A DNA stretch of 64,000 nt. Source: a virus. Lineage: Duplodnaviria; Caudoviricetes. The notes beneath the pieces were generated by a model. The model was not told the DNA's origin, ran no database searches, and was given only the letters and a program-made list of their open reading frames with translations. The position numbers and the translations under genes were made by a program. Where the stretch lies: positions 608 to 64,607 of the IMG/VR virus record IMGVR_UViG_3300034121_001930; one strand, 5' to 3'. Shown piece after piece: positions 20,235 through 36,900 of this stretch. Position 1 is the first letter of the stretch. Each line of letters begins with the position of its first letter.

Positions 20235-20660
20235 ATCTCGAGTACTCTATCATTTTTCGTGGCCTCATAAAGGAAAAAATTTTTTTCTCAAGGGGGGATA
20301 TATACATACACGACTCTTGAAAAAAAGTGTGACCCCCACCAGTAGCCTCGCGCCCGCGCGCACGCCCGCCGCGCCCGCCTCAATTCGCGCGCGTGCCCGC
20401 CCGTATTGTATGTACATTGTCGGTACATTGTACCCACATTCTGGCCGTGGAACATTCCCGATCAGCTCGCGCCGTGGAACATGACGCTGGAACCTGCATA
20501 AACACTAGGACTCCGCATTATGTTTTATTGTTACAAGTACTGGTGATTCTGGTCTCTGGCCTCTGGAATCAGGAAGCAAGGGGCACGCAGACCGCTTGGG
20601 GTCCTGCGCGTCTCGAGCCCCGGGGCTTGTGTCGGTCGCACCTCCCCCGTTGCAAGGCGT

Positions 20661-20719
20661 CCTGCATCCTGCATCCTGCATCCTGCTTCCGGTTGCAAAG
20701 CATCCTGCATCCTGCATCC
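20661..20719. repeat. (CCTGCAT)n heptamer repeats
   Basis: Four copies (one variant) plus two further copies. Confidence 0.9.
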
Positions 20720-20813
20720 GGTTGGCTGGTGGTTGGCTGGTGGTTGGCTGGTGGTTGGCTGGTGGTTGGCTGGTGGTTGGCTGGTGGTTGGCTGGTGGTT
20801 GGCTGGTGGTTGG
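20720..20813 (+). repeat. (GGTTGGCTGGT)x8 tandem repeat, containing eight GCTGGTGG octamers
   Basis: Eight exact 11-mers, 20720-20807, each followed by GG. Confidence 0.95.
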
Positions 20814-20866
20814 TACACGCCGCCGGAACGCTACACTAGGCGAGTGTAGTTTTGGCGCTGGGTATT

Positions 20867-20929
20867 GGTTGCTGGTTGCTGGTTGCTGGTTGCTGGTTGC
20901 TGGTTGCTGGTTGCTGGTTGCTGGTTGCT
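20867..20929 (+). repeat. (GGTTGCT)x9 tandem repeat
   Basis: Nine exact heptamers. Confidence 0.95.
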
Positions 20930-21133
20930 GGGCGCAGGAAAGTTGCACGAAATGCAACCATCCTGCTATGCTCTGGCAGTGTATACAAAACGACATTTCA
21001 GCCAACTACTAGGCTCCTAGTAGTTCGCAGAAAAGCGTATACATTTCATCTTTTCGACACTTTCTTGAAAAATATTTTCGGGGTCAATACGCTATAAAAC
21101 AAGGGGTTTCGCGCTACTCTGCAAACTTTCCCG

Positions 21134-21172
21134 AAAAAAAGTTGGTGACAAGTTCGGGGCCCAATGTATGGT
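21134..21172 (+). promoter_or_regulatory. Candidate early promoter of the ribozyme-punctuated operon
   Basis: A7 tract, then GTGACA (21145)-16 nt-TATGGT (21167). Confidence 0.45.
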
Positions 21173-21306
21173 CGTTCTCGTTGGCCGCAAGGTCACCCAC
21201 AAAAGCGGATCGGCCGCCGCCCCAGCACGGGGTCCGGCGGCGAGCTCCAAGCGGTGGTCCAGCTCTTTCCCAGTCCCCGATCTCCGGCCCGCAGTGTAAC
21301 GGGCCA

Positions 21307-21395
21307 TGGTGCAATGCCACCACCGCGAACAAGCCTGCAATGGTTGCAAGCCGCGCGGTGCCAGTCCCAAGTCTGGCCCAAGGCAGAGGGCACCA
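21307..21395 (+). ncRNA. Twister ribozyme, type P1; predicted cleavage C21312|A21313
   Basis: P1 TGGTG/CACCA; L1 CAA and GAGGG; P2 TGCC/GGCA; P3 CACCGCG/CGCGGTG; P4 CCAG/CTGG with loop TCCCAAGT; pseudoknots CCC:GGG and AC(21319-20):GT(21371-72), the latter a compensated variant of the usual GC:GC. Confidence 0.85.
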
Positions 21396-21400
21396 AAAAA

Positions 21401-22081
21401 ATGAGAACGGAATACGAATTGAATATCGGTTTGCTGGTCGAAAAGACTGGCAAAAGAATCATCCGCCAAGACGCCGCCGCCGCGCTCGCCGCGACTGGTT
21501 TTGAAGCACACGCTTCAATCCTGCATGAAGGCGAGTGGGAAGGCCAGCCGCAACCCACGCTGGTGGTCGTTGGCTTTGCTCCCGCCAATTGGAGCGCGGA
21601 CGCCTTGGCCGACGAGCTCCAGCAGGACAGCATCGCTGTCCTCGAGGTGGACGCCAACCACGGCCGCTTGGATGGCCCAAACCCGCAAAACTACGGGTTT
21701 GACCACAGCCTGTTCACCACCTTCGAGCAGGCCGTGGACGCCGAATGCGAACGCCGCAAACGCATCGCCTTGGTAGACCTCGAGCACGCCCGCTTGTTCG
21801 AGGCCGCCAAGGCCAAGGACGCCAGTGACAAGGCGTTCCTTGCCGCGGTGACGCCCCCCAAAGAAAAGACCAAGCAGGTGCACACTTTCAAGGGATTCAC
21901 CCTCGAGCTCGAGTACGACGGCGACACATTGTATGCCGACATTTCGCACGGCGACTTCGCGGGCTCGCTAGCGTTCGCGGAGCACAACGGCTACATTGAC
22001 GATGGCGAGGATGGCAAGCGCAAGCGCGTGCCACAGGAGGTCATCGAAAAGTTCTGGGAGCTCGAAGCAAACTTCGCCTGA
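21401..22081 (+). CDS. SAM-lyase-like (T3 SAMase/Svi3-3-like) protein with an acidic C-terminal extension
   Basis: ATG 5 nt after the twister; LNIGL...GEWEGQPQPTLVV...LADELQQDSIAV pattern; the stop is the UGA of hammerhead 1. Confidence 0.55.
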   Translation: MRTEYELNIGLLVEKTGKRIIRQDAAAALAATGFEAHASILHEGEWEGQPQPTLVVVGFAPANWSADALADELQQDSIAVLEVDANHGRLDGPNPQNYGFDHSLFTTFEQAVDAECERRKRIALVDLEHARLFEAAKAKDASDKAFLAAVTPPKEKTKQVHTFKGFTLELEYDGDTLYADISHGDFAGSLAFAEHNGYIDDGEDGKRKRVPQEVIEKFWELEANFA

Positions 22082-22134
22082 TGAGGCCCTTGGCAAGGGC
22101 CGAAACCCTGCCCCCGCAGGGTCGCGGAAGCCAA
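22072..22134 (+). ncRNA. Hammerhead ribozyme 1 (type I); cleavage after C22123
   Basis: CTGATGA (22078); stem II GGCCCT/AGGGCC; GAAA; stem III ACCCTGC/GCAGGGT; GTC; stem I CTTCGC/GCG(G)GAAG. Confidence 0.93.
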
Positions 22135-22152
22135 CCAATCCGCCCAACAAAA

Positions 22153-22317
22153 ATGAACAACATTGACACAACCATTGCCGTGGCCACCAATTGCGTGGCC
22201 GAATTGCTAGCCCTCGCGAGCGGACTCATTGACGACCTTGAATCCTTCGGGTCCGAATGTGGCGACGACTACAGGGCCGAACTTCAGAACATTGTGGACA
22301 GATTCAACGCCGCCTGA
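22153..22317 (+). CDS. Small acidic early protein (54 aa)
   Basis: MNNIDTT...RFNAA; fills the interval between hammerheads 1 and 2. Confidence 0.7.
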   Translation: MNNIDTTIAVATNCVAELLALASGLIDDLESFGSECGDDYRAELQNIVDRFNAA

Positions 22318-22382
22318 CGAGGCCCCGTCGCAAGGGCCGAAACGGCCAGCCCCTTCGGGGCGCTGGTCGTCGCGGAAGCCAA
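22310..22382 (+). ncRNA. Hammerhead ribozyme 2 (type I); cleavage after C22371
   Basis: CTGACGA (22314); stem II GGCCC/GGGCC; GAAA; stem III ACGGCCAGC/GCTGGTCGT capped by a CTTCGG loop; GTC; stem I CCGC/GCGG. Confidence 0.93.
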
Positions 22383-22402
22383 CCAATCCGCTCCAACCAA
22401 CA

Positions 22403-22822
22403 ATGAGCCAAACGCAATTCCAAAATCGTAGACAAGCAACCAATCACCCGTACCGCCCCTGCTCCGCGCTTAAGAGCCGCGGTGGCCTAGTCATCCACTC
22501 CGCCGCCCAGCGGTCCACTTGGTTCCTGCACCCCAGAATTAACGCTGACGCTTACCAAAGCGGCCTGCGCTGGGCCTGTAGCAGAAGCCAACGAGCCGCC
22601 GACGCGTGGATCGAGCAGGTGGCCGTTGGCCACGCGCTCGAGTGGGCAGAGCACGCGGCGCTGTCCGCGCTGTTCCCTAGCTGGCGGTTCCGGTTCACCG
22701 GAGCGACTGGGCAGGGCTCCGGTGTTCATTGGACCGCCAGCCGCAAGAGCGGTGGGCTGGTCGAAAGTATAGCAGGCACAAGCGCCGCGCACATAGCGCG
22801 CCGCCTGCGCCAAGCCGCCTGA
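22403..22822 (+). CDS. Hypothetical early protein (139 aa)
   Basis: MSQTQFQ...LRQAA; starts after the conserved leader and stops in the core of hammerhead 3. Confidence 0.65.
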   Translation: MSQTQFQNRRQATNHPYRPCSALKSRGGLVIHSAAQRSTWFLHPRINADAYQSGLRWACSRSQRAADAWIEQVAVGHALEWAEHAALSALFPSWRFRFTGATGQGSGVHWTASRKSGGLVESIAGTSAAHIARRLRQAA

Positions 22823-22873
22823 TGATGGCCGTGTGGCAACGGCCGAAACCCCGCAAGGGGTCGCGGAAGCCAA
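22815..22873 (+). ncRNA. Hammerhead ribozyme 3 (type I, extra U after A9); cleavage after C22862
   Basis: CTGATGA+T (22819); stem II GGCCGT/ACGGCC; GAAA; stem III ACCCC-GCAA-GGGGT; GTC; stem I CCGC/GCGG. Confidence 0.92.
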
Positions 22874-22893
22874 ACCAATCCGCTCCAACAACA

Positions 22894-23226
22894 ATGAAAA
22901 AATACGACTGGTCAATCCCCGTGCGCGACTTTCTCCGCACGGCCAAAAAACACGGGCTCGAGCCTGTTGCTGTAGACAACGGCGACGGCTGGGTCAGCAC
23001 CTCCGCCATCGCGATTGCGGTGGACGAAATAGCCGCCACCGACGAAAGCCATGTGCGGTTCACCCACACCGACGGCTCGCGCGTCACTGCGTACATCGTC
23101 CTTGGGAACGAACCCGCAGAGCTGGTGGCGGACTACACGATCCACCCCGCGCTTGACGCGGCCACCGATGAGCACTACAACAACTGGGAAGGCAAGCCCT
23201 GCCCGACAACCACCACCGAACAATGA
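22894..23226 (+). CDS. Hypothetical early protein (110 aa)
   Basis: MKKYDWSIP...IVLGNEPAELVADYT; starts after the conserved leader. Confidence 0.7.
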   Translation: MKKYDWSIPVRDFLRTAKKHGLEPVAVDNGDGWVSTSAIAIAVDEIAATDESHVRFTHTDGSRVTAYIVLGNEPAELVADYTIHPALDAATDEHYNNWEGKPCPTTTTEQ

Positions 23227-23330
23227 AACTACCACCAGAGCCCCCGCTGTGGCTAGGCGCATGCCTTGCCGCCCTCTTCGGGGCCGCCTTCGTAGCGGCC
23301 GCAATCCTATTCCACTACCTAGTATCGTGA
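23223..23330 (+). CDS. Small membrane peptide (35 aa)
   Basis: MKLPPEPPLWLGACLAALFGAAFVAAAILFHYLVS; ATGA and GTGA overlaps on both sides. Confidence 0.55.
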   Translation: MKLPPEPPLWLGACLAALFGAAFVAAAILFHYLVS

Positions 23331-23482
23331 AGCCTGCACCCTTCGCCTGTAGCGAGTGTGGTAGCCGCTGGTGGCCTGACCCAGACAGCAGTTGTCCGGC
23401 CTGCCAGCCAAGCCACACGCACGATCCAGACTACGACGAGCTACCGCCCGACCCGTACGATGAAATCGAACCCGAACCCTGA
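23327..23482 (+). CDS. Small Zn-ribbon protein with an acidic tail (51 aa)
   Basis: CSECG...CPAC; the GTG overlaps the previous stop. Confidence 0.55.
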   Translation: MKPAPFACSECGSRWWPDPDSSCPACQPSHTHDPDYDELPPDPYDEIEPEP

Positions 23483-23493
23483 ATCCTGAAAAT

Positions 23494-23712
23494 ATGAAAG
23501 CATACCTGCTAAAAGACTACTGCGGGCAAGGCCCGCGAATCGTTGTTCACCCGCGCGGCTTGCCGCCCAGCTGGACAGAATCCGGTCTCACGGCCGAGCA
23601 AGAAGAGCAAGCGCAACACAGCGCGTGCAAGCTGGGCCCAGAGTTCCGCAACTATGTGTTGCACTTCGACCCAGAGACACTGGAGCACCTTGACAGCTTC
23701 AAGGTGCGCTGA
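23494..23712 (+). CDS. Hypothetical early protein (72 aa)
   Basis: ORF ends 7 nt before the core of hammerhead 4. Confidence 0.65.
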   Translation: MKAYLLKDYCGQGPRIVVHPRGLPPSWTESGLTAEQEEQAQHSACKLGPEFRNYVLHFDPETLEHLDSFKVR

Positions 23713-23715
23713 ACC

Positions 23716-23784
23716 CCGCCTGATGATGGCCGTGTGGCAACGGCCGAAACCAATCCGCTCCGGCGGTGCGGTCGCGGAAGCCAA
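23716..23784 (+). ncRNA. Hammerhead ribozyme 4 (type I, extra U); cleavage after C23773
   Basis: CTGATGA+T (23720); stem II GGCCGT/ACGGCC; GAAA; stem III ACC/GGT plus CCGC/GCGG; GTC; identical to hammerhead 5. Confidence 0.88.
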
Positions 23785-23801
23785 CCAATCCGCCCAGAAA
23801 T

Positions 23802-24173
23802 ATGAATACATTAGTCACACTAAATATTGGCCTGCTTGTCGATAAGACTGGCAGGGAAATCAGCCGCACCGAAGCCGCACAGGCGCTAATCGAGCACGGC
23901 GTCGAGCCCATCATCAGCCTCCTTCACGAGACGCAGTGGGGTGATAAACCCCAGCCGACCCTCGTGGTCTTCGCGGAGGTCCCCCGCAACTGGACGGCCG
24001 ACGCGCTGGCCGACACGCTCGAGCAGGACGCCATAGCGGTCCTCGAGCATGGTCCCAATGGCCAAGTTAGGGGTCACTTTGATGGCCGCAACCCCAAAGG
24101 ATGGGGCTTCGACTTAAACGAGTTCGTAAGCTTGGACCAAGCACGCGCCGCGTGCAAAGCATCAGCCGCCTGA
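23802..24173 (+). CDS. SAM-lyase-like protein, paralogue of the 21401..22081 N-terminal domain (123 aa)
   Basis: LNIGLLVDKTG...WGDKPQPTLVV...NWTADALADTLEQDAIAVLE aligns with the first gene. Confidence 0.55.
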   Translation: MNTLVTLNIGLLVDKTGREISRTEAAQALIEHGVEPIISLLHETQWGDKPQPTLVVFAEVPRNWTADALADTLEQDAIAVLEHGPNGQVRGHFDGRNPKGWGFDLNEFVSLDQARAACKASAA

Positions 24174-24234
24174 TGATGGCCGTGTGGCAACGGCCGAAAC
24201 CAATCCGCTCCGGCGGTGCGGTCGCGGAAGCCAA
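24166..24234 (+). ncRNA. Hammerhead ribozyme 5 (type I, extra U); cleavage after C24223
   Basis: CTGATGA at 24170; exact copy of hammerhead 4, 450 nt downstream. Confidence 0.88.
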
Positions 24235-24254
24235 CCAATCCGCACCAACCAACA

Positions 24255-24548
24255 ATGAAAGCAGAAACCTATTATGTCCTGTCAATATCCACTCGCGCGA
24301 ACACCTTTGGCTACTTTGGGGTCATCCTATTGTCGGCCAGCGGTCACGGCGTTGAGGCCCTGTACAGCCCCTACGCTGGCGGGCTTCCGAAAGACCAGCT
24401 CGAGAACGGACTCCCCAAGCGCGGCACCCGCGTGCAGGACCTGTTCCAGCACGGCTTCGTAAGCGCACGGGACCAAGGCCACACGACTCCGGCCAAGGCC
24501 GCGCGCGTTATACAGGCCACCCTGCAACGCGAAAAACAAACCGCCTGA
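24255..24548 (+). CDS. Hypothetical early protein (97 aa)
   Basis: MKAETYYVLS...EKQTA; stops in the core of hammerhead 6. Confidence 0.7.
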   Translation: MKAETYYVLSISTRANTFGYFGVILLSASGHGVEALYSPYAGGLPKDQLENGLPKRGTRVQDLFQHGFVSARDQGHTTPAKAARVIQATLQREKQTA

Positions 24549-24600
24549 TGATGGTCCCTTGGCTGGGACCGAAACGCCGCCTAGGCGTCGCGGAAGCCAA
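24541..24600 (+). ncRNA. Hammerhead ribozyme 6 (type I, extra U); cleavage after C24589
   Basis: CTGATGA+T (24545); stem II GGTCCC/GGGACC (compensatory changes relative to other copies); GAAA; stem III ACGCC/GGCGT; GTC; loop II TTGGCT complementary to downstream AGCCAA. Confidence 0.92.
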
Positions 24601-24619
24601 CCAATCCGCACCAACAACA

Positions 24620-24823
24620 ATGACAAACATCCCGATAAAACTATGCGTTGGAGAATCCTATAGGATTCTACCGCCGCCGCCCAAAGAACGCGTTGAGGGG
24701 GTCTTCTATCCGGTCCGCTTCGGGCGACTGGTCGAGATCTACAGCAACGGCGAGTGCACCCTGCAATGGTACAACCAAGGCGGTTTCTACAAGAGCCACA
24801 TCACCCGCTTAACCCACTACTAA
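24620..24823 (+). CDS. Hypothetical early protein (67 aa)
   Basis: MTNIPIKL...; starts after the conserved leader. Confidence 0.65.
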   Translation: MTNIPIKLCVGESYRILPPPPKERVEGVFYPVRFGRLVEIYSNGECTLQWYNQGGFYKSHITRLTHY

Positions 24824-24826
24824 ACA

Positions 24827-25126
24827 ATGAAAACAGAAACATCACATGTGCTGTCCCTCGAGGACGCTTTCACGCCAACCTATGACCTGTTCCTGCAGGC
24901 CCCGTACAGCGGCAACCACAGGGACTTCGCGCACCAGCGCATACGCAATGGTGACGAGGTCGTCGAGCGCACCTTCTGGGGCCGCGATACCGCCGAGCAC
25001 TGGGTCAATGTTCGCGAAACACGCACCAGCATCCGCGGCCTTGTCCAGACGCTCGAGCAGGCCACCGGAGTCCGCATCATACTTGTGGACGACTTGCCCG
25101 AGGGCATAAGCTACCCAACCGCCTGA
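24827..25126 (+). CDS. Hypothetical early protein (99 aa)
   Basis: Stops in the core of hammerhead 7. Confidence 0.7.
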   Translation: MKTETSHVLSLEDAFTPTYDLFLQAPYSGNHRDFAHQRIRNGDEVVERTFWGRDTAEHWVNVRETRTSIRGLVQTLEQATGVRIILVDDLPEGISYPTA

Positions 25127-25191
25127 TGAGGCCCCGTCGCAAGGGCCGAAACGGCCAGCCCCTTCGGGGCGCTGGTCGTCGCGGAAGCCAA
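25119..25191 (+). ncRNA. Hammerhead ribozyme 7 (type I); cleavage after C25180
   Basis: CTGATGA (25123); otherwise the same as hammerhead 2. Confidence 0.93.
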
Positions 25192-25210
25192 CCAATCCGC
25201 ACCAACAACA

Positions 25211-25456
25211 ATGACAACAACAAAAAGCACTGAAAGAATCATAAGCGAGCTCGTGGGCCGCACTATCCGGTACATCGCGCTCGACTCACAGCAAACCAAT
25301 AACGGCGTACGCGTATTTAAAATCGACCAAGTCAACCGAGTTGCGGTTAGCAAAAAAGGCGTGCGCTACGCGGTGGTACGCGCGTGGGATATTGATGACC
25401 GCGGCGAGCAAAAGTTCCGCTCGCTACACTTGGCCGGAATCGACCTCGTAGTCTAA
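25211..25456 (+). CDS. Small WYL/SH3-fold-like protein
   Basis: VRAWDIDDRGEQKFRSLHLAGI resembles the WYL C-terminal FRxFxLxRI motif. Confidence 0.45.
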   Translation: MTTTKSTERIISELVGRTIRYIALDSQQTNNGVRVFKIDQVNRVAVSKKGVRYAVVRAWDIDDRGEQKFRSLHLAGIDLVV

Positions 25457-25477
25457 TCACAAACCAATAGAAAAACA

Positions 25478-26125
25478 ATGAACACAGAAACAGAAACAGA
25501 AACACCAGTGGCCTATTCACGAGGCCGATTCTACAAGGTCAAGGGCCTTCTTGTGAACGCCCCAATCACGGCGGTCTTGCACCGCTCGGTAACGGGTAAA
25601 GGCTGGGCAGTTACGAGCCCCTATTGCGGGCAGGTAATCGCCAAGGGCCCGACCAAGGCCGCGGCCGAGCAAGCCCTGCTCGAGGTGCTCCAGCAGTTCG
25701 GAATCGAACGGGTCCAAGCGGGCATCCAAAGCGCGCCAGCGGCTCCCGATCCGGCAACGCTGGAATCCCCGCCAGCCCCGCAACGACCCGCTCGCGTAGA
25801 CCGCGACCAGATCGGTCAAATAGTCAAAGCCATTGCCGAACGCGCACAGCTTACCGACTCCGAGATCGAGGCCGTGTGGCGCTCGCTGGCCTCTAACGGG
25901 AAGCACGCGGGCCGCCTGCTATCCAAGCCGCCAGTCTTCAGCGTGGACCCGCTGGCCAACGCCGCGTGGAACGGACTACAGCCCAACCCGTGGAAGGTTC
26001 AACCCACCGCAATCCTGTTCGCCAACGGCAACGCTAAAGATTTGCTGAATAAACTTGCCAAGCATGCTTGGCCAGCCTTTCTTGATCGCGACGCCGCGGC
26101 GCTCAAAGCACTAAATGTTTGGTAA
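25478..26125 (+). CDS. Hypothetical early protein (215 aa)
   Basis: ORF preceded by an A/C-rich leader. Confidence 0.7.
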   Translation: MNTETETETPVAYSRGRFYKVKGLLVNAPITAVLHRSVTGKGWAVTSPYCGQVIAKGPTKAAAEQALLEVLQQFGIERVQAGIQSAPAAPDPATLESPPAPQRPARVDRDQIGQIVKAIAERAQLTDSEIEAVWRSLASNGKHAGRLLSKPPVFSVDPLANAAWNGLQPNPWKVQPTAILFANGNAKDLLNKLAKHAWPAFLDRDAAALKALNVW

Positions 26126-26127
26126 TT

Positions 26128-26700
26128 ATGAAAGCAAAAATACAAGCAACCACAGCAATCCTTGTCGGCAAATCTAATGTGAATGGCTGGTGCCCCGTTA
26201 CTGGGGAGCCAGCCAACTCAATCTACCAGTGCTTCCCCACTGGTAGATTGGTGCGCGCGTCCAGCGATGCAAACGCGCTCGAGGCGCACAACAACGAACT
26301 GCCGAACGACACACGAATCCTGTCTCCAGAATCCAGAGTCTCGAAACCAGTCGAGCCCGCGGTCTGGGACAACAAACAAAAAATAGAAACAAAAAAAGTG
26401 AATAACAACATAACACACCTAGTCGCGGTTTCGTGCCGCACGCTACCCGCAACAGACAACTACCCTGCCCGAGTCAAGGTCACCTTACCGCGGTTCCAGA
26501 AAAGTATAACGCTTCCTTGGAACTACGGCGCGTCGCCGGAAGTCTCGGACCAAGTGGCGTTCTGGTTGCAACAGAATAACCTTAAGCACTGCGCGTTCCT
26601 TGACCTGCACGATTTTCATGTGTTGGCCGTGGAATGGGAGCTGGTCCCGCAGCTGCTTGAGTTGTTCAAAAACAAAACACCTAACCGCTACAAAAAATGA
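26128..26700 (+). CDS. Hypothetical protein (possibly two in-frame units)
   Basis: ATG 2 nt after the previous stop; possible internal GTG start near 26398. Confidence 0.55.
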   Translation: MKAKIQATTAILVGKSNVNGWCPVTGEPANSIYQCFPTGRLVRASSDANALEAHNNELPNDTRILSPESRVSKPVEPAVWDNKQKIETKKVNNNITHLVAVSCRTLPATDNYPARVKVTLPRFQKSITLPWNYGASPEVSDQVAFWLQQNNLKHCAFLDLHDFHVLAVEWELVPQLLELFKNKTPNRYKK

Positions 26701-26916
26701 CGCACACAGAACGCAGACTACAGGCGCAGGAAGCCGCTTTTATTTACCTAATAAAAAAGGGGCGCAAGACCTTAAGCAGACCCACTCCTGCGGTGGTTGG
26801 AAGAGACCTATTAATATTCAAAAAGCCATGATTTTAAGCCTAACCATTGTGCTAGTAGTTTTACTAGTGGTTTTGTTTTGCAACGGCCCAAACGACCCCA
26901 ACCCCCCAGCATCATT

Positions 26917-27153
26917 GTGAAAACTATTTACGCGTCTACGTTCAACCCTACCGCTCGAATCGTACATAGCCCCGACGGGGCCGCCGAGATTAGGACCACC
27001 CGCAACTGGTTGTCGTACACCGAAACATTGAGCATGCCAATGTGTGAAAAGTACGGAATAGATTACCACACAATTAGCGAAACCGATGCGCTAAATTTAG
27101 CGCTGGAACTTGCGTATTTGAGCGGTAAAATTAACACCAGCGAAACCCCATGA
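26917..27153 (+). CDS. Hypothetical protein
   Basis: GTGA and ATGA overlaps with its neighbours. Confidence 0.5.
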   Translation: MKTIYASTFNPTARIVHSPDGAAEIRTTRNWLSYTETLSMPMCEKYGIDYHTISETDALNLALELAYLSGKINTSETP

Positions 27154-27347
27154 TAGGCAACACACTAACCACCACCATAACTGGGGACCTCCAGCAGGTC
27201 CCCAGCATTGACCACCTCGTAGATCTTCTGCACATTCAAGACCCCGAATTTATTTTTGTGGACAACCTTGTCGAGGAAGACTACTCTGTACCAACTCCCC
27301 CCACTAACCCCAAAAACGACTACAACTACTATTATGCAAAATATTAA
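27150..27347 (+). CDS. Small acidic hypothetical protein
   Basis: ATGA overlap with the previous gene. Confidence 0.45.
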   Translation: MIGNTLTTTITGDLQQVPSIDHLVDLLHIQDPEFIFVDNLVEEDYSVPTPPTNPKNDYNYYYAKY

Positions 27348-27579
27348 TACCATCGCAAGACTGAACGCGCAAGAGCGTGCCGACCACGAGAATAGCCGCA
27401 ACGGAACCTACTGTGTTCTCCGTCATGGGGGAATCCTCCTCCGCAGCGGAGTCCGCAGTAAGACCTTGGACAACCCCGAAGAAGCCGCTGGTTTCCTCGA
27501 ACAAGTCCGCGGCAAGAATAGCGGTATTATCCGCCAAGTGGTGCAGAGTTTCTTTGCGCCAAATCTCCAGCTAGCCTAA
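27334..27579 (+). CDS. Hypothetical protein (81 aa)
   Basis: MQNINTIARL... Confidence 0.55.
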   Translation: MQNINTIARLNAQERADHENSRNGTYCVLRHGGILLRSGVRSKTLDNPEEAAGFLEQVRGKNSGIIRQVVQSFFAPNLQLA

Positions 27580-27666
27580 ACAAATTATGCCCTTGTTGTA
27601 CCTAACAGTAGCGGCTTCCCTTTTCGGGGTGGCCGCTACAGTTTACGACATTATTATGTCACTGCC

Positions 27667-27930
27667 ATGATTCGTGATACCTGTATCGTTAGTCATTTAT
27701 TCTTTGATCGAACCAACCACGACCGCGTTTGCGTAGAGTTGCACAAGGACTCAGGATTCCTTTATGTGTTCTACAAAACAAAGTTTGGAACAATGCGTAG
27801 CGCAAGCGCCGCGGTTGACCCAGAGGTTTCATCAAAGATCCACCAGCTGTTCGGGTCACTGTATCCTGAGATGCCCGAGCTAGCTACAGAAATGAACGAA
27901 TGGCTACAAGCAACGCTTGAAAGCCGTTAA
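27667..27930 (+). CDS. Hypothetical protein, last gene of the early region
   Basis: 87-aa ORF ending just before the terminator. Confidence 0.6.
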   Translation: MIRDTCIVSHLFFDRTNHDRVCVELHKDSGFLYVFYKTKFGTMRSASAAVDPEVSSKIHQLFGSLYPEMPELATEMNEWLQATLESR

Positions 27931-27933
27931 ACC

Positions 27934-27972
27934 AAAAGCCCCGAGCATTATGTTGCTCGGGGCTTTTTTGTT
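27934..27972. terminator. Bidirectional rho-independent terminator
   Basis: AAAAGCCCCGAGCA-loop-TGCTCGGGGCTTTTTT between convergent genes. Confidence 0.9.
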
Positions 27973-30900
27973 TTATTTTGTGTTTAATTTCAAGTACTGC
28001 GGCCTAGCATACACGGCCTCGTTAAGGTACTTCACACGCGCGGCACCGTTCTCTTCTCCGCCAATGCGCAAGTAGTCCTTGTACGCGTCTTCGCTAGGTT
28101 TAAACCTTTCGACCCGACCATAACGCACGGCGTCCTTAAAGCGGCGCTTGCTAATGCCCACATCGTAGGCTTGGCTTTCCATTTCAGCGTAGCTCATTCC
28201 GAGCTTCTCGAATCCGGCCGCGTACTTGTTGAGCCTTTCGTTAATCGCAATCAATGATGTTTCATAGCGATCATAAACTCCGTCCACGCGTTCCTTGTCT
28301 AGCTGCTCGTAGCTCTTAAGCTCGCCAAGAGTTTCTCTGGCCGCGTCCATTTGTTGTTTAAGGTCACCGAACGCGCGTCTTGCCAGCTGTTCTGTTTTAT
28401 TGGTGTGAACGCGGAACGGTTTGAACTCGTTGACCACAAGGTCAGCGGCCTTCTCGAAGCGTGCGTCCTTGTCGTAAACCCCGCCGTTGGTATAAGCCTC
28501 GTAAGCTTTCCAAAACTGGAACGGGGTGCGAAGCTTGTACGCGTTAGTGGCCACATGCTTCAGGGTCTTGCCGACTTTGGTTCCCCATGAATCGTCCTCC
28601 AACCACAGCGCACCGCCGCGGTCGTCTCTATTCATACCGGCCTGCGCGAAAGCCTCCACTGCAATCTGCGGGCTCAGGAAACTCTTTGCCAAGGACGAAG
28701 CCATGACCCCCGGTATTTTCTCCCAGCGGCCATTGACTGCATGATGAATGCTGCGGCCGACGGCGTCTGTGATTGGACTAAATCCGTTAATGTAGGTGAG
28801 ATCCCATGTTGTTACTGATTTGTCCGCTGGGTCTGATGTAATGAACAAGTTGGAATCGCGTGCCCAAGGCGGCTGAGCAGCCCGAACACCTTCTTCTTCC
28901 TCGTCTTCGACCTCAAACATTTCTTTCAGCAGGGCCGGAGCACCATACCCAAGGACAGAAAGGGTAGTGCCGAGTCCAATTAGTCTGTTACGGCCCCTCG
29001 CCACGAGCACTGGGTTTCCGCTCTTCACTTCGTCTACTCCGAGCTGGATCGTCGCGATTGGAAGGCGGAACATTTCTGCGGTGAAGCGGAAGAAGCTGTT
29101 GAACAGCATGCCAAGCCCGCTGCGTTGGAACTCTTTAGCAATCGGAGCCACACGCTCGCGGCCCTGTGTGGTAAGCCTGACAACACGCGCCGCCTCCTGC
29201 TTAATTTGCTGTGGTGTTAGCGGAACGCTCCTGTACTTGTTAGCTTTGGTCTGCACATCAATTTCGTGCGCCCAGTAAGCGGCCTTGTAGAGCATATCAA
29301 TTTGATCGTTAAGGGTTGCAAGACCATCGACTGTAACCTTCGCGCCCTTCCACGCCTTGGCAAGGAAGTTGCCCGGGGTACCGACCTCTTTGAGCATAGA
29401 CTCAATCTGATTTGTAATCAGTTCAGGGTCGTCAATTGTTCCGCGGATAAAGTCGCGCATAGTTTGTGTAACCATGCTGCCTTCGGAGATTCCCAGCATA
29501 ACCATATCGGCTCCGAGTCCGTCCATGTCGCGGCCGTACACTTGTTTAATACCTTTAAGCGCTGTAACAATGTTGCTAGGCGTAGGAACAAACCCGTTAG
29601 ACGATGCAAAGATTGGAATACTCACAAGGTTGCGGACAAAGAAGCCAGCGCTTCCCAATGTAAGAAACGCCATACTGGCACCAATTGTTCTGCTAGCACC
29701 AAGCTGTACAAAGTCCCAAACCTTTTTAGCATCGCTACCTTCTGGGGCAGGTGCCGGAGCGAACATAGTTTGGAACGCAGAAACAACTTCGGGCTGCGCG
29801 TAGTACTGGGACAGTGGATCGCCGCCGTTGGTGTCTGTGGTGTTTACTAGCGGAGCGTACCCGCGGTACTTAACTGGATCGTTCTCCACATCTTCGGCGG
29901 TTACAAGCCAGTTGTTGTCGAGACCAAGCTTGGTGTACTGCGTGAGCAGTCTCTGGGTACCAAGAAACTGAGCGAGGTTTCCGTAAGTGCGCAGCGCATT
30001 TTCAATTGGGTTCTGTACCTCGCCAAGCAGCACTCGAAGTTCCGGCGGCACTTCACCTTTCTGCATGAATCTTGTAAGATCAGTGCGGCTGGTTGCTCTT
30101 CCAAATACTTTTGGCGTCGCGCTGTGCTTGTCAATAAACTTGTAGAGCTCGCGCGTTCCAACATCTTTGGAGGCCGCTTCAGCTCGCACAAGCGACATGA
30201 CTTCTGAGTCTGTGTACGGCTCGTACGCAACGTCCTTGCGCCACTGCTCGTATGTGTTATCAATCCACTTTTTCTCAAGGAAGTTACGGGCAAGCGCACG
30301 CTGGTGCGCGAACTCGCTGTCCTCCAGTACGCGTTGCGCGTAGCCTTCGTCCTGATGGATGCGGTAGGTGCGGGTAAGGTAGACTCCAAGATTTTGGTCA
30401 ATAATTGCACGAAGCGGATTACCGGAGCCCAGCTCGTCTGAAAGTTCAGAGCTAAGTTTGTCCACGGCCACGCGGAAATTGGCAATGGCAATTGCAGTTT
30501 TCGGGGAGTTCAACTCCAGCCTAAGCTGCGCTTGCTGCTGCGCCTTGCGCACCGGTGCGAGGTTTTGTGCACGCGCGTCTTGGATATCCTTACTGTACTG
30601 GGCCTCGGCCGCGGCAATTGCTGCGTCCCTTTGCTGAATTTCTGGGCTATTTTTTCTATCAGCGCGGGCCTGCTCAACTTCTGCAGTATACTTTTGTTTG
30701 CTGCGATGAGTCCTATAGTTCACACGCGCCGTATTAACGGCGTCCATGTAAGCTTTGTTTGCCGGGGCCCTGTCAAATACATCGTTAGCCTTGTCAATGC
30801 GTGCGCGCTTGGCCGTTTCTGCAGCGTCGCGTTGCGCCGCGCCTACGGTTGGCTCTGTGCTACCGAGCGCCAAGTTAACGTCGTCCAAGTCTGCGTTTGG

Positions 30901-33900
30901 TTCCGACTTAAGTGCGGCTTGGAACGCTTGCGTAAGATCCTTAAGCCGCGCCTTGGCAAGACGCAGCCCACGCTCTTGGTACTTGGCGGCCTCGAACAAG
31001 CGAGGGTCCATGTTTCCACTGGCGCGGAACAAGCGGCTAACTGGTCCACCCGCGTCCCATTCACCGGTGGCGTTGTTAATAAACAGGTCGTCCAAGCTAA
31101 CCGCGTACGCGCTTTCAACGTCCGGGCTCGTAATAGCATACAGGGCCTTGCTGTAGCGCGGGCTCTTGTCTGTCATATAACCAGTGGCGCGCTCAGCAAA
31201 CTCAGCGTTGCGTACGAATACTCGCGGGCCCACCATAATAGCTTCGGACCCACCGACCACGGCGAGCTTACTGCGCACGTCAACGAAGTCGCTGCTGCGC
31301 ACGGGGTTAAAGCCGACCTCGGTCCAGACTTCTGGATCGTTAATGTCTGCGGGCATCTCGGTAATTGTGGAGATGTTACCCTTTACAGTCGCAAGAGGGA
31401 ACTTGCCGGTACCTGCTGCAATATCACGTGCCTCACCTTTTCCGCTAATAGCACGAACCACCATAGTTGGGTTCGTAATCCGAGCAACACTAGTGTACGA
31501 CAACGGCGCTGCTACACGCGTCGCAGTTTCTGCGGCGGGTTGATGAAGTGTAATCGCATATACCGATTCACCAGCAGCTGTAGATCTGTTGTATGTGGGT
31601 ATATCAATACGGGCTTCAACAACAGTTCTATCGGCTACAGCCACGCCAACTTTATCAACTTTGCTAGCGTCTATGTACTGTTTAATTTTATCAATTGCTG
31701 GAGCGTCCGCAGCCCCTTTGACTTCCCACGGATCAAAGAAGCCAACAAGATCGGCGTATTCATCCACGGTAATTTTACCTTCGATCATTCGCACAGCAGC
31801 TACAGCAAGCTCGGGTGCGTTACGCCGAGCCGTCGCCTTGCCCGCGGCTTTCTCTTCTGCTGGCGTTACCGGTGTAAGGTTTGCTAAGCTCTTGGCTATG
31901 CTGGCTGGTGCGGCCAGCGGCAAGCTAGTGTCACCATCCTTTACCTTGGTTACCTTTTGCTTATTGAACAATACACCAGCTTGGTAAGACGTGCTAACAT
32001 AACCCTTGAATCCTGCATCCTTAACCGCTTTCTCGAGCAGTGTAAGTGCAGCGCGGTTGTCGAACCTAGCGTAGCCAGCCTTCTGCAGGGCGTCTGCGTC
32101 CGGGTACAGGTCTAGTGGATCACGGTCCAAGTCGTACAAGGCATCGCCGTTGACCAGCATGCTGTAGCGGTTGACCCCGACCTGAGTCTCGCGGCGGTAC
32201 TTGCCGTATCCGAAATAGGTTCGCGGCATGTAGATGTCTCCGTACTCGCGGCGGCGCTCGAGTTCTTTACCAGCGCCACCATTACCGTGTTCGCTTGGGT
32301 CTGTCTCCTTAAGCTCGGTGGCCTTGGACCAATGGGTTAGCTGGACCATGCGTCCACGGAAAGCCTTGGGCGCGGTGTCGAGCCCGGCCTTGCTAAGCGC
32401 AATGTTCGCGTTAGTGAAGCCATCCTTAAGCGATGTCGGGCTCCACGCGACCAGCTCGAGCACGTCTCCATTGTTGTCCACAATAATGATTCCGTCGTAG
32501 CCGAGCTTCTGACCCATGGTCTGGAACTGCTTACCTATGTAGCCTTTCTCTTCTAGGATCTTCTCGGTCTTTGCTTCGGCCTTGTCTGGGTCCATGCCAA
32601 GAGCTTGGAATATATTGGCTGGATACGCTTGGCTATACTCAAACACCAATGGATTCTGTAGGCTAACATCGAATACCGAAACGCTACCACCGGTAATGCC
32701 TGCTCCGAGGCTACCCTCGCGCGCATACTTCTTCGCTGAGTCAACGCTTGGCGTGACGTAGTAACCAGATCCCAGAGCGCCTTCCTTGCTCGGACGCAGC
32801 GCACCCACACCCTGCTTGTATGTGCCGCCGTGGAATGCTGTTGTGGAGTACGGCTGGCCAGTTGCGACTATGGCTTTGCTGCGCGCAATACTAAGATTAA
32901 CACCCAAGCGGGTCGCAATTCTTGTATCTTCAATTTCAATATCAGTTACCGTAGGCAAGTTCATTGCGTACGTAATGATTTCCGAATCTGTATACAAGCC
33001 CTTGGTTTGTTTCTTAATGCGGTCAAGAGCTTGAGTACGCAGATCAAACTCAGTTCTAAGCTTGTTTCTGAAGGCCGCGTCAAGATCGTACCAAGCCGCA
33101 TCGGTTTCAACCGGTGAGGTAACAATATCCAAGATGTCATTACCGGCCATATCAGTTTCTCTTTGAAGTTTCTTAGAAACTTCTGCGACTGTAGCAAGAT
33201 CTTGCAAAGCTTTCGGCATATCCGAAATTCGCATATATCTTCCTTGAATCACTGGGATCTCTGACGGATGAACTCGCGCGCCCAAGAACTCTTTGGCTGC
33301 TTTGGACCATGTGTTGCGTCGTTCGCTGTTCGCGAACATAGCCTCGTCATCTTGGGTAATTGCACGGCTGCGGGCAATGCCGACCCCGGCCGGGGCCGGA
33401 CCTTCGGTAACGTCGGCCCAGCTTGGGAAACCAAGACCAAGCTCTTCATTGTTGCTATTGGCCACGGCGGTTGCCAAGTCCTTGCCGTTGGTCGCCATTG
33501 CAAACACTGCGGTCTGCGCTTGCTCCAACGTAATCTCGTTGTTCTGGTACCGGGCCCATACGGCGCGCACACCGTTAACGTTTTCAGACTTACTCTTCCA
33601 TCTGGCCGTGAACAACATACGCACGGCTTCCCAAGTAATGCTTTGCACTTGGCGCGGGAGCATTCCGTACTCAGCGGCGACCGCTCTGTACGCTTCTGCG
33701 AATGCTGGGTAAAGACCACCAACGCCGGTAAGGCTGTCGGTGGCGGTGTTTGCGGTTCCAAAGTTCTGGCCGACCTCGCGGCTGTTGCCGCTGAACGCTT
33801 GCCAGAACAGCGCCGCAATGGCGTGGGTGTCCATGGTCACGTGGCCGTCTGCGTTCTGCGGGTCCACAATGTTATTGTAAAAGCTACGAACCTTGTGCTG

Positions 33901-36900
33901 GTCGCCAAGCTCGTCGCTAATAACTTTCATTTGGGTTTCGGACGGCGCGGTAAGAATACTAATAGCCTTGCCAATGCTGCCGTAGGTTCCCCACGCTAGT
34001 TTGATTTCTTTGGTGACGCCCTTGTTATTGGTGCTTGAGCTAGGCGTACCAAAGCGTCCGTCCGGGCTAACGATTGGGAAGCTAGTGGCGTACTTGGTTT
34101 CAGCACGCATGCGTACAAACCAAGCCTGTTGCTCCGGGCTAAGATCCTTGAGCTTTTTACCTTTTAAGGACTGAAGCCGTTCAAACGCTTGCTGCCTTTT
34201 TGCTTTTACTTTTTCGCTGCCCCAGCCGTGGAACAACAGCATGCCGTTCTCGTCTGTGCGGTGCTCGCCGTTTTCGTCAAGGTCCGGTTTGATCCCCTTG
34301 GCATAACCAATGGTCCCGTCCTTGTTCTCCTTAAGCTCTGGCTCACCGCCGCGCATAAGCCAGCGCGCGCTCATTGCGTCGTCCCATTCGTACTCTTGGT
34401 CCGCGGTCCAGATTTCCATTGTCCGCTTGGCCAGCTCGACGTTCATGAACCAGTCCTTTTGTGGACTGAACACGGCAAGCACACCTGCGCTCTGCTCAAG
34501 GGAGTAGTTGTCCCCGGCGAACTGCTGCGCAATAATGTTTGCGCCGTCGTACCAAAGGTTGGCGATGTCGCGGATATCGCTTGGGAAAACATCCATTAGC
34601 GTGCGCAGGTTGCTCTTGGTAACCTCATTTAGTGTGTTGTAAATCTCGTCTGCTTGCTTGGCGATTGGGTGTTTCGGGTCCTTGGCAATCTTGTCAAGCG
34701 TATCGGTGTACGTCTTGAGCGCCTTGCTGCTGTCTGTTCCAAGAACAGCGCCTTCCGCCTCGTACTTTTTAATCTGGTCTAGGTTCTTGTTGAACTCGGC
34801 CAAGGCCTTATTGCGCGCCCTTGCTTCTTTGTTCCCAGCAATAGTACCGGGCTGCTCCTTGGTAACAAATGCGGACTCAGGATTTTCAATTGCGTCCTCC
34901 AGCATTTTGCCGGACACCTTAGCTTTAGGAACACCAAGATAATTAGCGAATGTTTTCTTAGCTGTATCTTTTGCACCCTTAATCTTAATGCCGTTTGCTT
35001 TTGCTTTGTCCTGCGCTTTAAGAACAGCACCACGGATTTTTGCGTATTCTTTGGCGAGCTTCGGGAACTCGCGAGCAACGATTGGGTACTCGAGCAGAAG
35101 CAGCGCGTTCTTGCGGTACGCTTGCGGGTTGCGCTTCAGTGATGCCAGATCCACCAAGTTGCTCGGGTCGGCACCGTCCTCGGTGGCCTTAGCAGATGTT
35201 GGGTTGCGCGTGCCCACAGCCTTGCCAGCCTTGGTTTGCGCGCGAACCTGTACTGGGTCAATATTAACAGCGGCCCGGCTATAACGCACAATTGGTGCTG
35301 GGCTAGCGGCGCGGCTTGCGAGCTGCATGGTTACCGGACTGATATCCAGCGCGTTGAATTTTTCTGGGGCGTCTGGAAGTCCTGCGCCGTCGCGCAGAAG
35401 GTAACGGTAAAGATCCGCCACTCGGTTTTGCGCGGTGGCCAGCCTTTCGTTATCGCCGTTATTTCGCAGCGCAATGTGGTAGTACGCGGACGCGACGAAC
35501 TGTTTGGCCTGCTCTTTAACCTTAAGCAAGTCCTGCAGATCGGAGTTGGTCAGAGTATTGTAGGCGGCCTGCTCAATAACTGAGTCCGGGCTAAGTCCAA
35601 CCTCTTCAAAACTAAGCTGAATGTCTGGACCGTTTGATCCGTTCGCCAAACCAATAGCAACAGCAAGTCTGGTGTCGAGTTCTTGCAGGTCGCCAGCGTC
35701 TTCAACGTCGTAGGCTTCGTAACGGGCTTCGGCCAGAGCTGGGTTAACAGCAAGGCGTCCGTCAACGAACTGCATGGGCTTGTTAATTTCTCGGTCCTCG
35801 ACAACTTGGAACTCGTCCTGAGCTGCTAGACTTCTTGCGATCTTTGTAACAGGAGCGGCTTGCTGGTCGCCCTTGCTGTACTTGATTCCAGAATCCAGAC
35901 TCGTGTCTAGGTCATATTCAACGCGGATTGTTGTTACGTTGCCGTTGGTGTCCAGCAGCGTACTAAAAAAGTTGTCGTCGGCCCCTATTGGTTGGTTAAG
36001 AGACTCGCCAACGCGCGGGCTATACATGCCATCCTTAAAGTACATTCCTGTGTTGGTTACAACGGAGTCCTGTACAAGCTCATTGGCTGCGTCAACCGCG
36101 TCTTGGTCCGTGAGTCCGGGGACAAGGAAGCTATTCTCGCCGCGGTTATACTTGCCAACAATTGGAATTACTTGGTACCCACGGTCCTTCAGCCACTGGG
36201 TAGCCTTCTTGTTGAACTCCTTGTTTTCTCTTTCGGAGAACTGGGTATCATTGGGGTTCTCCCCGGTAAACATACCGAACCTCTGGTTAACAATAATATC
36301 GTTAATCTCTTCGTTGCTAAGGTCCGAGTAACGCAGCGTTTGCACTTGGTGCAGAATCCACTCAAGGTCGTCACGCGAGTGCGGGTTTGGCACGCCAAAC
36401 AGCGGGCCAACTCTGTTCTCGTGGTTAACACCCGCACGGCTGGCGGCCACTTGCGCAACGGTTCTACCGTACGGGTTTTGTCCAAGCGTTTGGTTTGCGT
36501 TTGACAGATCAGTAATAACTTCGGCCAGCTCTTTGTACTGCTTGCTGGCTACTGGTTGCCCGCTAAACAGGCTTGCAATAAGATCAATAAATTTCTGAAC
36601 AAAGTTTCGTTCGCCCTTGGGGCTAAGCTCGACTAGTTGTTTGCGGAACTTGCTGGACCCATAGAAGTGCGCCACCAATTCACGGGCTCCGTCAACATCA
36701 CTAAACGGTTCAGACAAACTAGCGCGACCTTCCAGAGCGTACCGCAAGTCCGGCGGCATGTTGTCGCCGTACTTTGCGTTAGCACGTTCCGCGTACTCAG
36801 CGCGCAGGGACATAAGCCTGTCGCGCACTTGTTGTTCAAACTCGTTTGCCGGGGCTGTTACAACACGATCTGTAACAGCGTGGCCCAGCTCGTGAAGCAA

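Follow-up and report, generated by a model that had tools for sequence, protein, structure and literature searches.

Stop codons of upstream genes lie in the cores of predicted hammerhead ribozymes in a lake phage operon and probably reflect compact packing

Introduction

In a 64,000-nucleotide stretch of viral DNA (Duplodnaviria; Caudoviricetes; IMG/VR record IMGVR_UViG_3300034121_001930, positions 608 to 64,607; hereafter the window), an operon of small genes carries seven elements that resemble type-I hammerhead ribozymes. In six of the seven, U4G5A6 of the catalytic core is also the in-frame stop codon of the open reading frame (ORF) upstream, at an offset of +1 from C3. This arrangement raises the question of whether the overlap is a control device, in which translation of the upstream gene gates cleavage of the RNA, as the original prediction proposed, or whether it is a product of compact packing, which was named there as the alternative. 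The analysis presented here, of the window and of related phages, indicates that the overlap is probably compact packing permitted by the type-I topology and not a device for control.

Clusters of hammerheads in one orientation, placed between individual genes or small gene groups in prophages and phages, are described in the main text of Perreault et al. (2011; PMC3088659), where processing into gene-length mRNAs is the proposed role and pseudoknot contacts are reported in all three topologies. What hammerheads do in phages is treated as still open in the main texts of reviews (including PMC6765202).

Results

An array of seven hammerhead-like elements

Searching the window with the pattern CTGANGA..GAAA..GCGGAAGCC gave seven matches on the plus strand and none on the minus strand, where 100 shuffles gave an expectation of 0.00. 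A leader-independent scan of both strands for the core, stems I to III and H17 returned the same seven elements and nothing further. The elements (HH1 to HH7, Table 1) lie within 3.1 kb, all in one orientation, and flank the genes of a phage transcription unit; they belong to seven copies of a unit of about 90 nt between 22074 and 25184 on the plus strand. Each unit has the same order, with CCGCC before the TGA, the core with two capped helices, GTC, GCGGAAGCCAACCAATCCGC, an A/C-rich stretch and the ATG of the next gene. Conservation sets in exactly at CCGCC and extends to this ATG, and the coding sequences upstream are mutually unrelated.

The core positions C3 U4 G5 A6 N7 G8 A9 / G12 A13 A14 / A15.1-U16.1 / H17 are intact in all seven elements, with C at H17 throughout and U at N7 in all but HH2, which has C. 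Stem I is open and comprises 4 bp, stems II and III are capped, and the predicted cut site lies 3' of the whole motif. To these we added relatives found by scanning viral contigs for the core plus GTCGCGGA, keeping those with at least 3–4 pairs in each stem. Of the matches listed, 119 of 162 were kept, which gave 115 unique elements including the seven of the window; all counts for relatives, here and below, are among the matches listed. An extra U after A9, a known natural variation in hammerheads, is present in four of the seven window elements and in 56 of the 115 relatives.

The G10.1-C11.1 pair is present in 115/115 relatives, and the free positions examined in stems II and III have 4–6 pair types each; the window's own copies differ in these stems too, around an unchanged core. 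Loop II and the tail immediately 3' of stem I share 4 bp or more of complementarity in 73 of the relatives, against a mean of 36 and a maximum of 45 in 200 permutations of the tail; in HH1 to HH7 the complementarity extends over 3, 2, 4, 4, 4, 6 and 2 bp, respectively, and the contact is absent from HH2 and HH7. For stem I (CCGC/GCGG) only G-U variants were seen (HH1 and the relative L096), because the search pattern fixed its 3' strand, and only matches with 3 or more pairs in each stem had entered this set. An alignment of the relatives with MAFFT was discarded as the optional extra U misaligned stem II. As no Rfam hammerhead model reached its gathering score, the fold was checked by anchored counts. 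On the basis of the full core, the capped stems II and III with covariation across the 115 relatives, and the predicted loop II/3'-tail pseudoknot, we file these elements as type-I pseudoknotted hammerheads, with cleavage as a prediction.

The core UGA and the genes that end there

The geometry described in the original prediction was confirmed. The six in-core ORFs end at 22081, 22317, 22822, 24173, 24548 and 25126, in each case at base 4 of CTGANGA; five of them have the tandem stop TGATGA, and HH2, with CTGACGA, has a single stop. The seventh stop lies 7 nt before its core (ORF 23494-23712, gap 23713-23719, C3 at 23720). The claim that the 5' strand of stem I lies inside coding sequence also stands: in the six in-core cases this strand consists of the last two sense codons, NCC GCC, and the final GCC ends in the catalytic C3. 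Because these codons form the strand, in-core ORFs end in Ser, Thr, Pro or Ala followed by Ala; across the window and its relatives, 22 of 23 end in Ala, and one of the four residues precedes it in all but one.

We compared the ORFs with their orthologues, and found the differences concentrated at codon position 3: 56 against 17 and 18 at the other positions for g0, 29–30 against 13 and 4–5 for g2, and 13 against 1 and 1 for g6. Since third positions take most of the change, the ORFs that end at the hammerheads are, on this substitution pattern, real coding frames. Their likely starts are the ATGs directly after the conserved leaders.

Several other properties of these genes were recorded. Both g0 and g5 match phrog_11722, a family of unknown function (E 3.9e-6 and 2.1e-4), and the orthologues of g0 in relatives have C-terminal parts that are shorter and different. 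The genes that follow the hammerheads have an A/C-rich leader (e.g. CAACAACA) before the ATG, without a Shine-Dalgarno-like motif, and many other hammerhead families have GGAGG in this place; leaders of the former kind may be informative on the host. An AUG formed by A6-U7-G8 overlaps the stop (UGAUG) at 22081, 22822 and 24548. In these elements (HH1, HH3 and HH6) the frame that it opens crosses the ribozyme over 72 nt and is that of the next gene's start codon, and the AUG is out of frame in the remaining three elements with U at N7; the continuity is probably a coincidence of equal element lengths.

Reassignment of the stop codon, or its suppression by a tRNA, was considered and ruled out: the tRNAs called comprise Met, Thr and a doubtful Pro, translation table 11 leaves long ORFs open, and no suppressor tRNA or sign of TGA recoding was found in the window. 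The doubtful call is an ARAGORN tRNA-Pro at 25687-25764 on the minus strand, inside g10 on the opposite strand and without an Rfam tRNA match at gathering score, and is probably a false positive.

The in-core phase is kept at orthologous junctions and is not a rule

To collect junctions of the window's own clade, we searched viral and metagenome collections for the leader of this clade, and grouped orthologues by hand. In the metagenome scan most of the 120 loci listed lacked a CTGANGA-type element under the regular expression, and there were 34 new matches. Our codon-usage gene caller performed poorly in this clade, with 32 of 65 calls 'opposite' and g2 miscalled, and the clade junctions were hence classed by hand; two ambiguous rows were left out of the 26 junctions retained. 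Gene calls from six-frame longest ORFs were rejected, as 53 of 118 fell on the 'opposite strand', mostly as artefacts of G+C-rich DNA; the codon-usage caller improved on these.

The original prediction proposed conservation of the stop/core phase in homologous arrays as a test, and the outcome is divided. The phase is kept at orthologous junctions: the in-core stops of g0, g1, g2, g6 and g8 are retained in every relative that carries these genes, and g4 has its stop at -10 in every relative that carries it (among them L030, L132 and L106). Retention of this kind is expected anyway, because a frameshift near an in-core end would read into the next gene. As a rule for the arrays the phase does not hold. 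In the extended clade 12 of 26 distinct junctions are in-core (0.46; p=0.12 against 1/3), and 13 have the stop upstream, mostly at -7 to -13; one has its stop 85 nt upstream. In other families that share the GUC/GCGGA junction, for which genes were called by codon usage, the stop is in-core in 16 of 69 junctions and in 9 of 49 confident calls; in these confident calls the stops within 30 nt split 17:15:14 by frame (p=0.35).

Stops abut the ribozymes, and no sign of selection on the overlap was found

Irrespective of phase, 22 of the 26 junctions in the clade, and 53 of the 69 in the other families, have their stop in the core or at most 13–15 nt from C3. Stop positions have a sharp mode at -7/-8, directly against a stem I of 4–5 bp. 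The general feature is thus the abutment of stop and core, not the in-core phase. Junctions in the same operon that have no ribozyme are equally tight, with an ATGA overlap at 23223-23226, a GTGA overlap at 23327-23330 and spacers of 3–21 nt.

We looked for signs of selection on the overlap in the identity of N7, the fifth pair of stem I, the identical ribozyme copies and TGA recoding, and found none. In-core junctions show no enrichment of U at N7, the base that creates the tandem stop (15/23 against 34/57 at the others, p=0.8), and the fifth pair of stem I is not weaker there (8/23 against 26/57, p=0.46). The ribozymes HH4 and HH5 have one and the same sequence; in the former the stop is outside the core, in the latter inside it.

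A leader hairpin may compete with stem I

The leader at the start of each predicted 3' product contains GCGGA and UCCGC, which can pair with one another in place of stem I. In nearest-neighbour minimum free energy (MFE) folds of all seven elements, stems II and III form together with this hairpin, and the 4-bp stem I never does. Downstream CCGC is present in 90 of the 115 relatives, compared with 13.8% of control windows. Stem I thus has, according to these folds, a conserved local competitor, and the hairpin also fits a role as the structure of the 5' end after cleavage.

Genomic setting

Almost the whole of a 64,607-bp virus record, a complete genome with direct terminal repeats, is covered by the window. 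The record is present in 20 sequencing runs, all of DNA, from lake and freshwater metagenomes. The operon occupies about 21401-27900 of the plus strand, and starts 3' of a tandem-repeat region and a promoter-like site. In the repeat region, short units such as CATCCTG, GGCTGGTGGTT and GCTGGTT recur in tandem, many times each, in three runs at 20640-20940, just upstream of the promoter-like region.

The 5' untranslated region of the first gene holds a twister-P1-like element that ends 6 nt 5' of the ATG at 21401. Against RF03160 it scores 45 bits (E 1.3e-7), short of the gathering threshold, 67.2; with one such element alongside the seven type-I hammerheads, the operon would contain two ribozyme classes. 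A strong hairpin followed by a T run is probably the end of the operon, and terminator-like matches within the operon before 27934 do not exceed the shuffle expectation (10 found, 11.5 expected). A distant blastn search of 20500-28000 against the phage GenBank collection gave no match. Beyond the operon, a 4371-aa ORF on the minus strand (27973-41088) contains DUF7178, DUF3293 and, as a weak match, ART-PolyVal; it resembles a phage polyvalent protein.

Table 1. Features of the operon and arrays of related phages. Positions are those of the window; cuts are predictions.
Feature	Position	Strand	C3	Description
Twister-P1-like element	21308..21394	+		5' untranslated region of the operon's first gene; Rfam RF03160
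g0	21401..22081	+		226 aa, ends ..ANFA; stop is core UGA of HH1; phrog_11722, E 3.9e-6
HH1	22074..22127	+	22078	stem I 5' strand, CUGAUGA, stem II, GAAA, stem III, C17, stem I 3' strand; cut after 22123
Leader GCGGA..UCCGC of 3' product, example	22124..22143	+		can form hairpin replacing stem I
Further leader copies	starts 22372, 22863, 23774, 24224, 24590, 25181	+		
g1	22153..22317	+		54 aa, ends ..FNAA; stop is core UGA of HH2; L106 orthologue with same junction
HH2	22310..22375	+	22314	CUGACGA, single stop; cut after 22371
g2	22403..22822	+		139 aa, ends ..RQAA; stop is core UGA of HH3
HH3	22815..22866	+	22819	extra U after A9; cut after 22862
g4	23494..23712	+		72 aa; stop 7 nt before HH4 core (the exception)
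HH4	23716..23777	+	23720	ribozyme sequence identical to HH5; cut after 23773
g5	23802..24173	+		123 aa, g0 paralogue, ends ..ASAA; stop is core UGA of HH5
HH5	24166..24227	+	24170	cut after 24223
g6	24255..24548	+		97 aa, ends ..KQTA; stop is core UGA of HH6
HH6	24541..24593	+	24545	6-bp loop II/3' tail complementarity; cut after 24589
g8	24827..25126	+		99 aa, ends ..YPTA; stop is core UGA of HH7
HH7	25119..25184	+	25123	same as HH2 except N7; cut after 25180
Hairpin + T run	27934..27967	+		14 pairs, 8 of them G-C
L030 array				5/6 in-core stops
L132 array				4/6 in-core stops
L106 array				4/7 in-core stops
L096+L131 array (one contig)				4/7 in-core stops
L138 array				3/6 in-core stops
L184 array				3/6 in-core stops

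Discussion

We propose that packing has set each hammerhead right at the end of the ORF before it, and that the position of the stop in the core follows from the order of parts in a type-I element. In this topology the element begins with stem I's 5' strand and the CUGANGA box, so that one reading frame in three runs through stem I into U4G5A6. The cut after C17 would fall 41–55 nt beyond the stop; the 5' product would therefore keep its stop codon and end in stems II and III. With the stop intact on this product, use of the core UGA would thus cost nothing and save a few bases. The 3' product would start at G1.1, 28–31 nt before the next ATG. The RNAs released by self-cleavage at each element would then be monocistronic, with structure at the 3' end and a 5'-OH hairpin leader. 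Related phages have this ribozyme family in both layouts, with the stop in the core or 7–13 nt upstream. Of the two accounts offered in the original prediction, compact packing fits better, given the optional phase in relatives, the lack of enrichment of the tandem stop and the identical ribozymes found with both layouts. We infer that the overlap arose from compaction rather than control, and consider this the probable explanation.

A number of observations weigh against this explanation. The six in-core stops among the window's seven junctions exceed both the expectation of 1/3 from phase (p=0.0069) and the family rate of 16/69 (p=0.00087); these tests assume independent junctions, though the seven are not independent because the ribozyme copies are paralogous. 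The orthologues of g0 have three different C-termini (..ANFA, ..ANFESA and ..QPA) and all end at the core UGA. When all calls in the other families are counted, stops within 30 nt fall more often in the core frame than in the other two (29:19:15, p=0.024), and the longest-ORF rule places 28 of 97 unique junctions in-core, with frames of 44:22:17. There may accordingly be a mild real preference for the core frame. Our gene caller is home-made, with 75% self-consistency, and makes many spurious 'opposite strand' calls in G+C-rich loci. A rule that accepts at least 60 open codons likewise gives 46 of 148 junctions in-core, compared with 15.5% for random TGA triplets. Such cruder ORF rules favour the core frame because stretches open in that frame must stop at the core, while those in the other frames run through it and go uncounted.

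The identity of the elements bears on all of these readings. At gathering score Rfam has no hammerhead model that matches them, nor does any appear at E values up to 10 over 8 kb, which also counts against our account; in a 96-nt scan RF00008 (Hammerhead_3) is alone in matching HH1, and does so partially, over CUGAUGA, stem II and CGAAAC, with 17.4 bits where 48.5 is the threshold. The elements could then be inactive hammerhead-like repeats, for example decayed copies or protein-binding sites, with an overlap that has no consequence for RNA processing. A stem I of only 4 pairs and the 2-bp loop II/tail complementarity of HH2 and HH7 are in line with this, but every core position is intact in all seven copies, and stems II and III covary around a fixed core both in the window and across the 115 relatives. 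We therefore regard inactivity as highly improbable.

Translation-gated cleavage is physically plausible on the geometry of the overlap. With its usual footprint, a ribosome terminating at the core UGA would span stem I and the core and reach across stem II's 5' strand, and one that stops up to about 13 nt upstream would also hold the 5' strand of stem I, which applies to both layouts observed here. In this scheme the terminating ribosome would hide that strand, GCGG would pair with the downstream UCCGC and the junction would stay uncut; conversely, an upstream ORF that is not translated would let the ribozyme fold and cut. In favour are the overlap itself, with a stem I of 4 bp whose 5' strand forms the last two codons, the alternative hairpin that replaces stem I in the MFE folds of all seven elements, and the downstream CCGC, kept in relatives far above the control level. 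At 22 of 26 and 53 of 69 junctions, the stops are also within reach of stem I for a terminating ribosome, taking the footprint at its usual size. As originally framed, the gating proposal keeps its geometry and loses its link to phase, since nothing marks out in-core junctions in the clade (12/26) or in the other families (16/69). Moreover, spacers are just as tight where no ribozyme is present, the alternative hairpin is explained equally well as the structure of the 5' end after cleavage, and the direction of any ribosome effect is unpredictable, because unwinding could also rescue misfolded copies. We consider gating unlikely. The conserved local competitor of stem I keeps the idea alive in a more general form, in which type-I phage hammerheads would be ribosome-sensitive kinetic switches, and upstream translation during a short co-transcriptional window would decide between a cut junction and one locked uncut. 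This broader version seems to us somewhat less likely again; if it were true, the in-core stop would be the tightest version of a general coupling rule.

The high share of in-core stops in the window could also reflect lineage history, with the ribozyme and its leader acting as a putative recombination joint, gene cassettes carrying their own junctions, and the share set by the cassettes that the phage happens to hold. The conservation from CCGCC to the next ATG beside unrelated upstream genes is consistent with such a joint, as is the homogenisation of copies (HH4 equals HH5, and HH2 equals HH7 except at N7). Compared with 21401-25210 of the window, cassettes have been gained, lost and reordered at ribozyme boundaries in L030, L132, L106, L096+L131, L138 and L184; for example, g6 precedes the g4 block in L030 and comes after g5 in the window, and L030 lacks g1 and g5. 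The type of junction moves together with the gene: g4 is always at -10 and g2 always in-core. This history leaves the origin of in-frame junctions unexplained, however, and it is compatible with packing rather than a true alternative to it. As the explanation of the overlap we rate it a doubtful candidate, below the switch.

The hammerhead array is of a known kind, here in a lake phage and in a sequence family missed by the Rfam models. The closest known system is that of the Perreault et al. (2011) arrays, which likewise have several co-oriented hammerheads flanking phage genes. The main text of that paper (PMC3088659) contains neither 'stop codon' nor 'open reading', and does not state an overlap of core UGA and ORF or a flush placement. 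The window elements share the catalytic core and three-helix junction of Hammerhead_1 (RF00163) and Hammerhead_3 (RF00008), but differ in scoring below the gathering threshold, in their open 4-bp stem I, in the frequent extra U after A9, and in a tertiary contact that is predicted to be a pseudoknot between loop II and the 3' tail. The discontinuous hammerhead in a mammalian 3' untranslated region, as presented in the main text of PMC6765202, is unlike ours: it is eukaryotic, its parts are hundreds of nucleotides apart, it follows the stop codon without overlapping it, and it removes the polyadenylation signal. A nearer parallel is found in the ATGA and GTGA stop-start overlaps of compact phage operons, where bases likewise have a dual function as a by-product of compaction; there the second function is that of a start codon, and here that of a catalytic core in an RNA. 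The main text of a preprint (10.64898/2026.03.05.709948) points out that CUGAUGA contains a tandem pair of UGA triplets and, in contrast to our analysis of the window, reports no ORFs with their end in a hammerhead core. We found no description of such ORFs in the main texts of the literature searched, and this is not proof that the observation is unpublished.

We see this as a modest discovery, in that the comparative data show the overlap to be optional, consistent with compaction. Annotation based on Rfam misses this hammerhead family entirely. The array provides a clean natural case of fusion, a single module of about 90 nt combining the ribozyme with the stop codon, the C-terminus of the protein and the downstream leader, and the last two residues of the in-core ORFs are dictated by RNA structure. 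HH4 and HH5 constitute a natural matched control, and the interplay of translation and ribozyme folding should therefore be easy to test in this phage.

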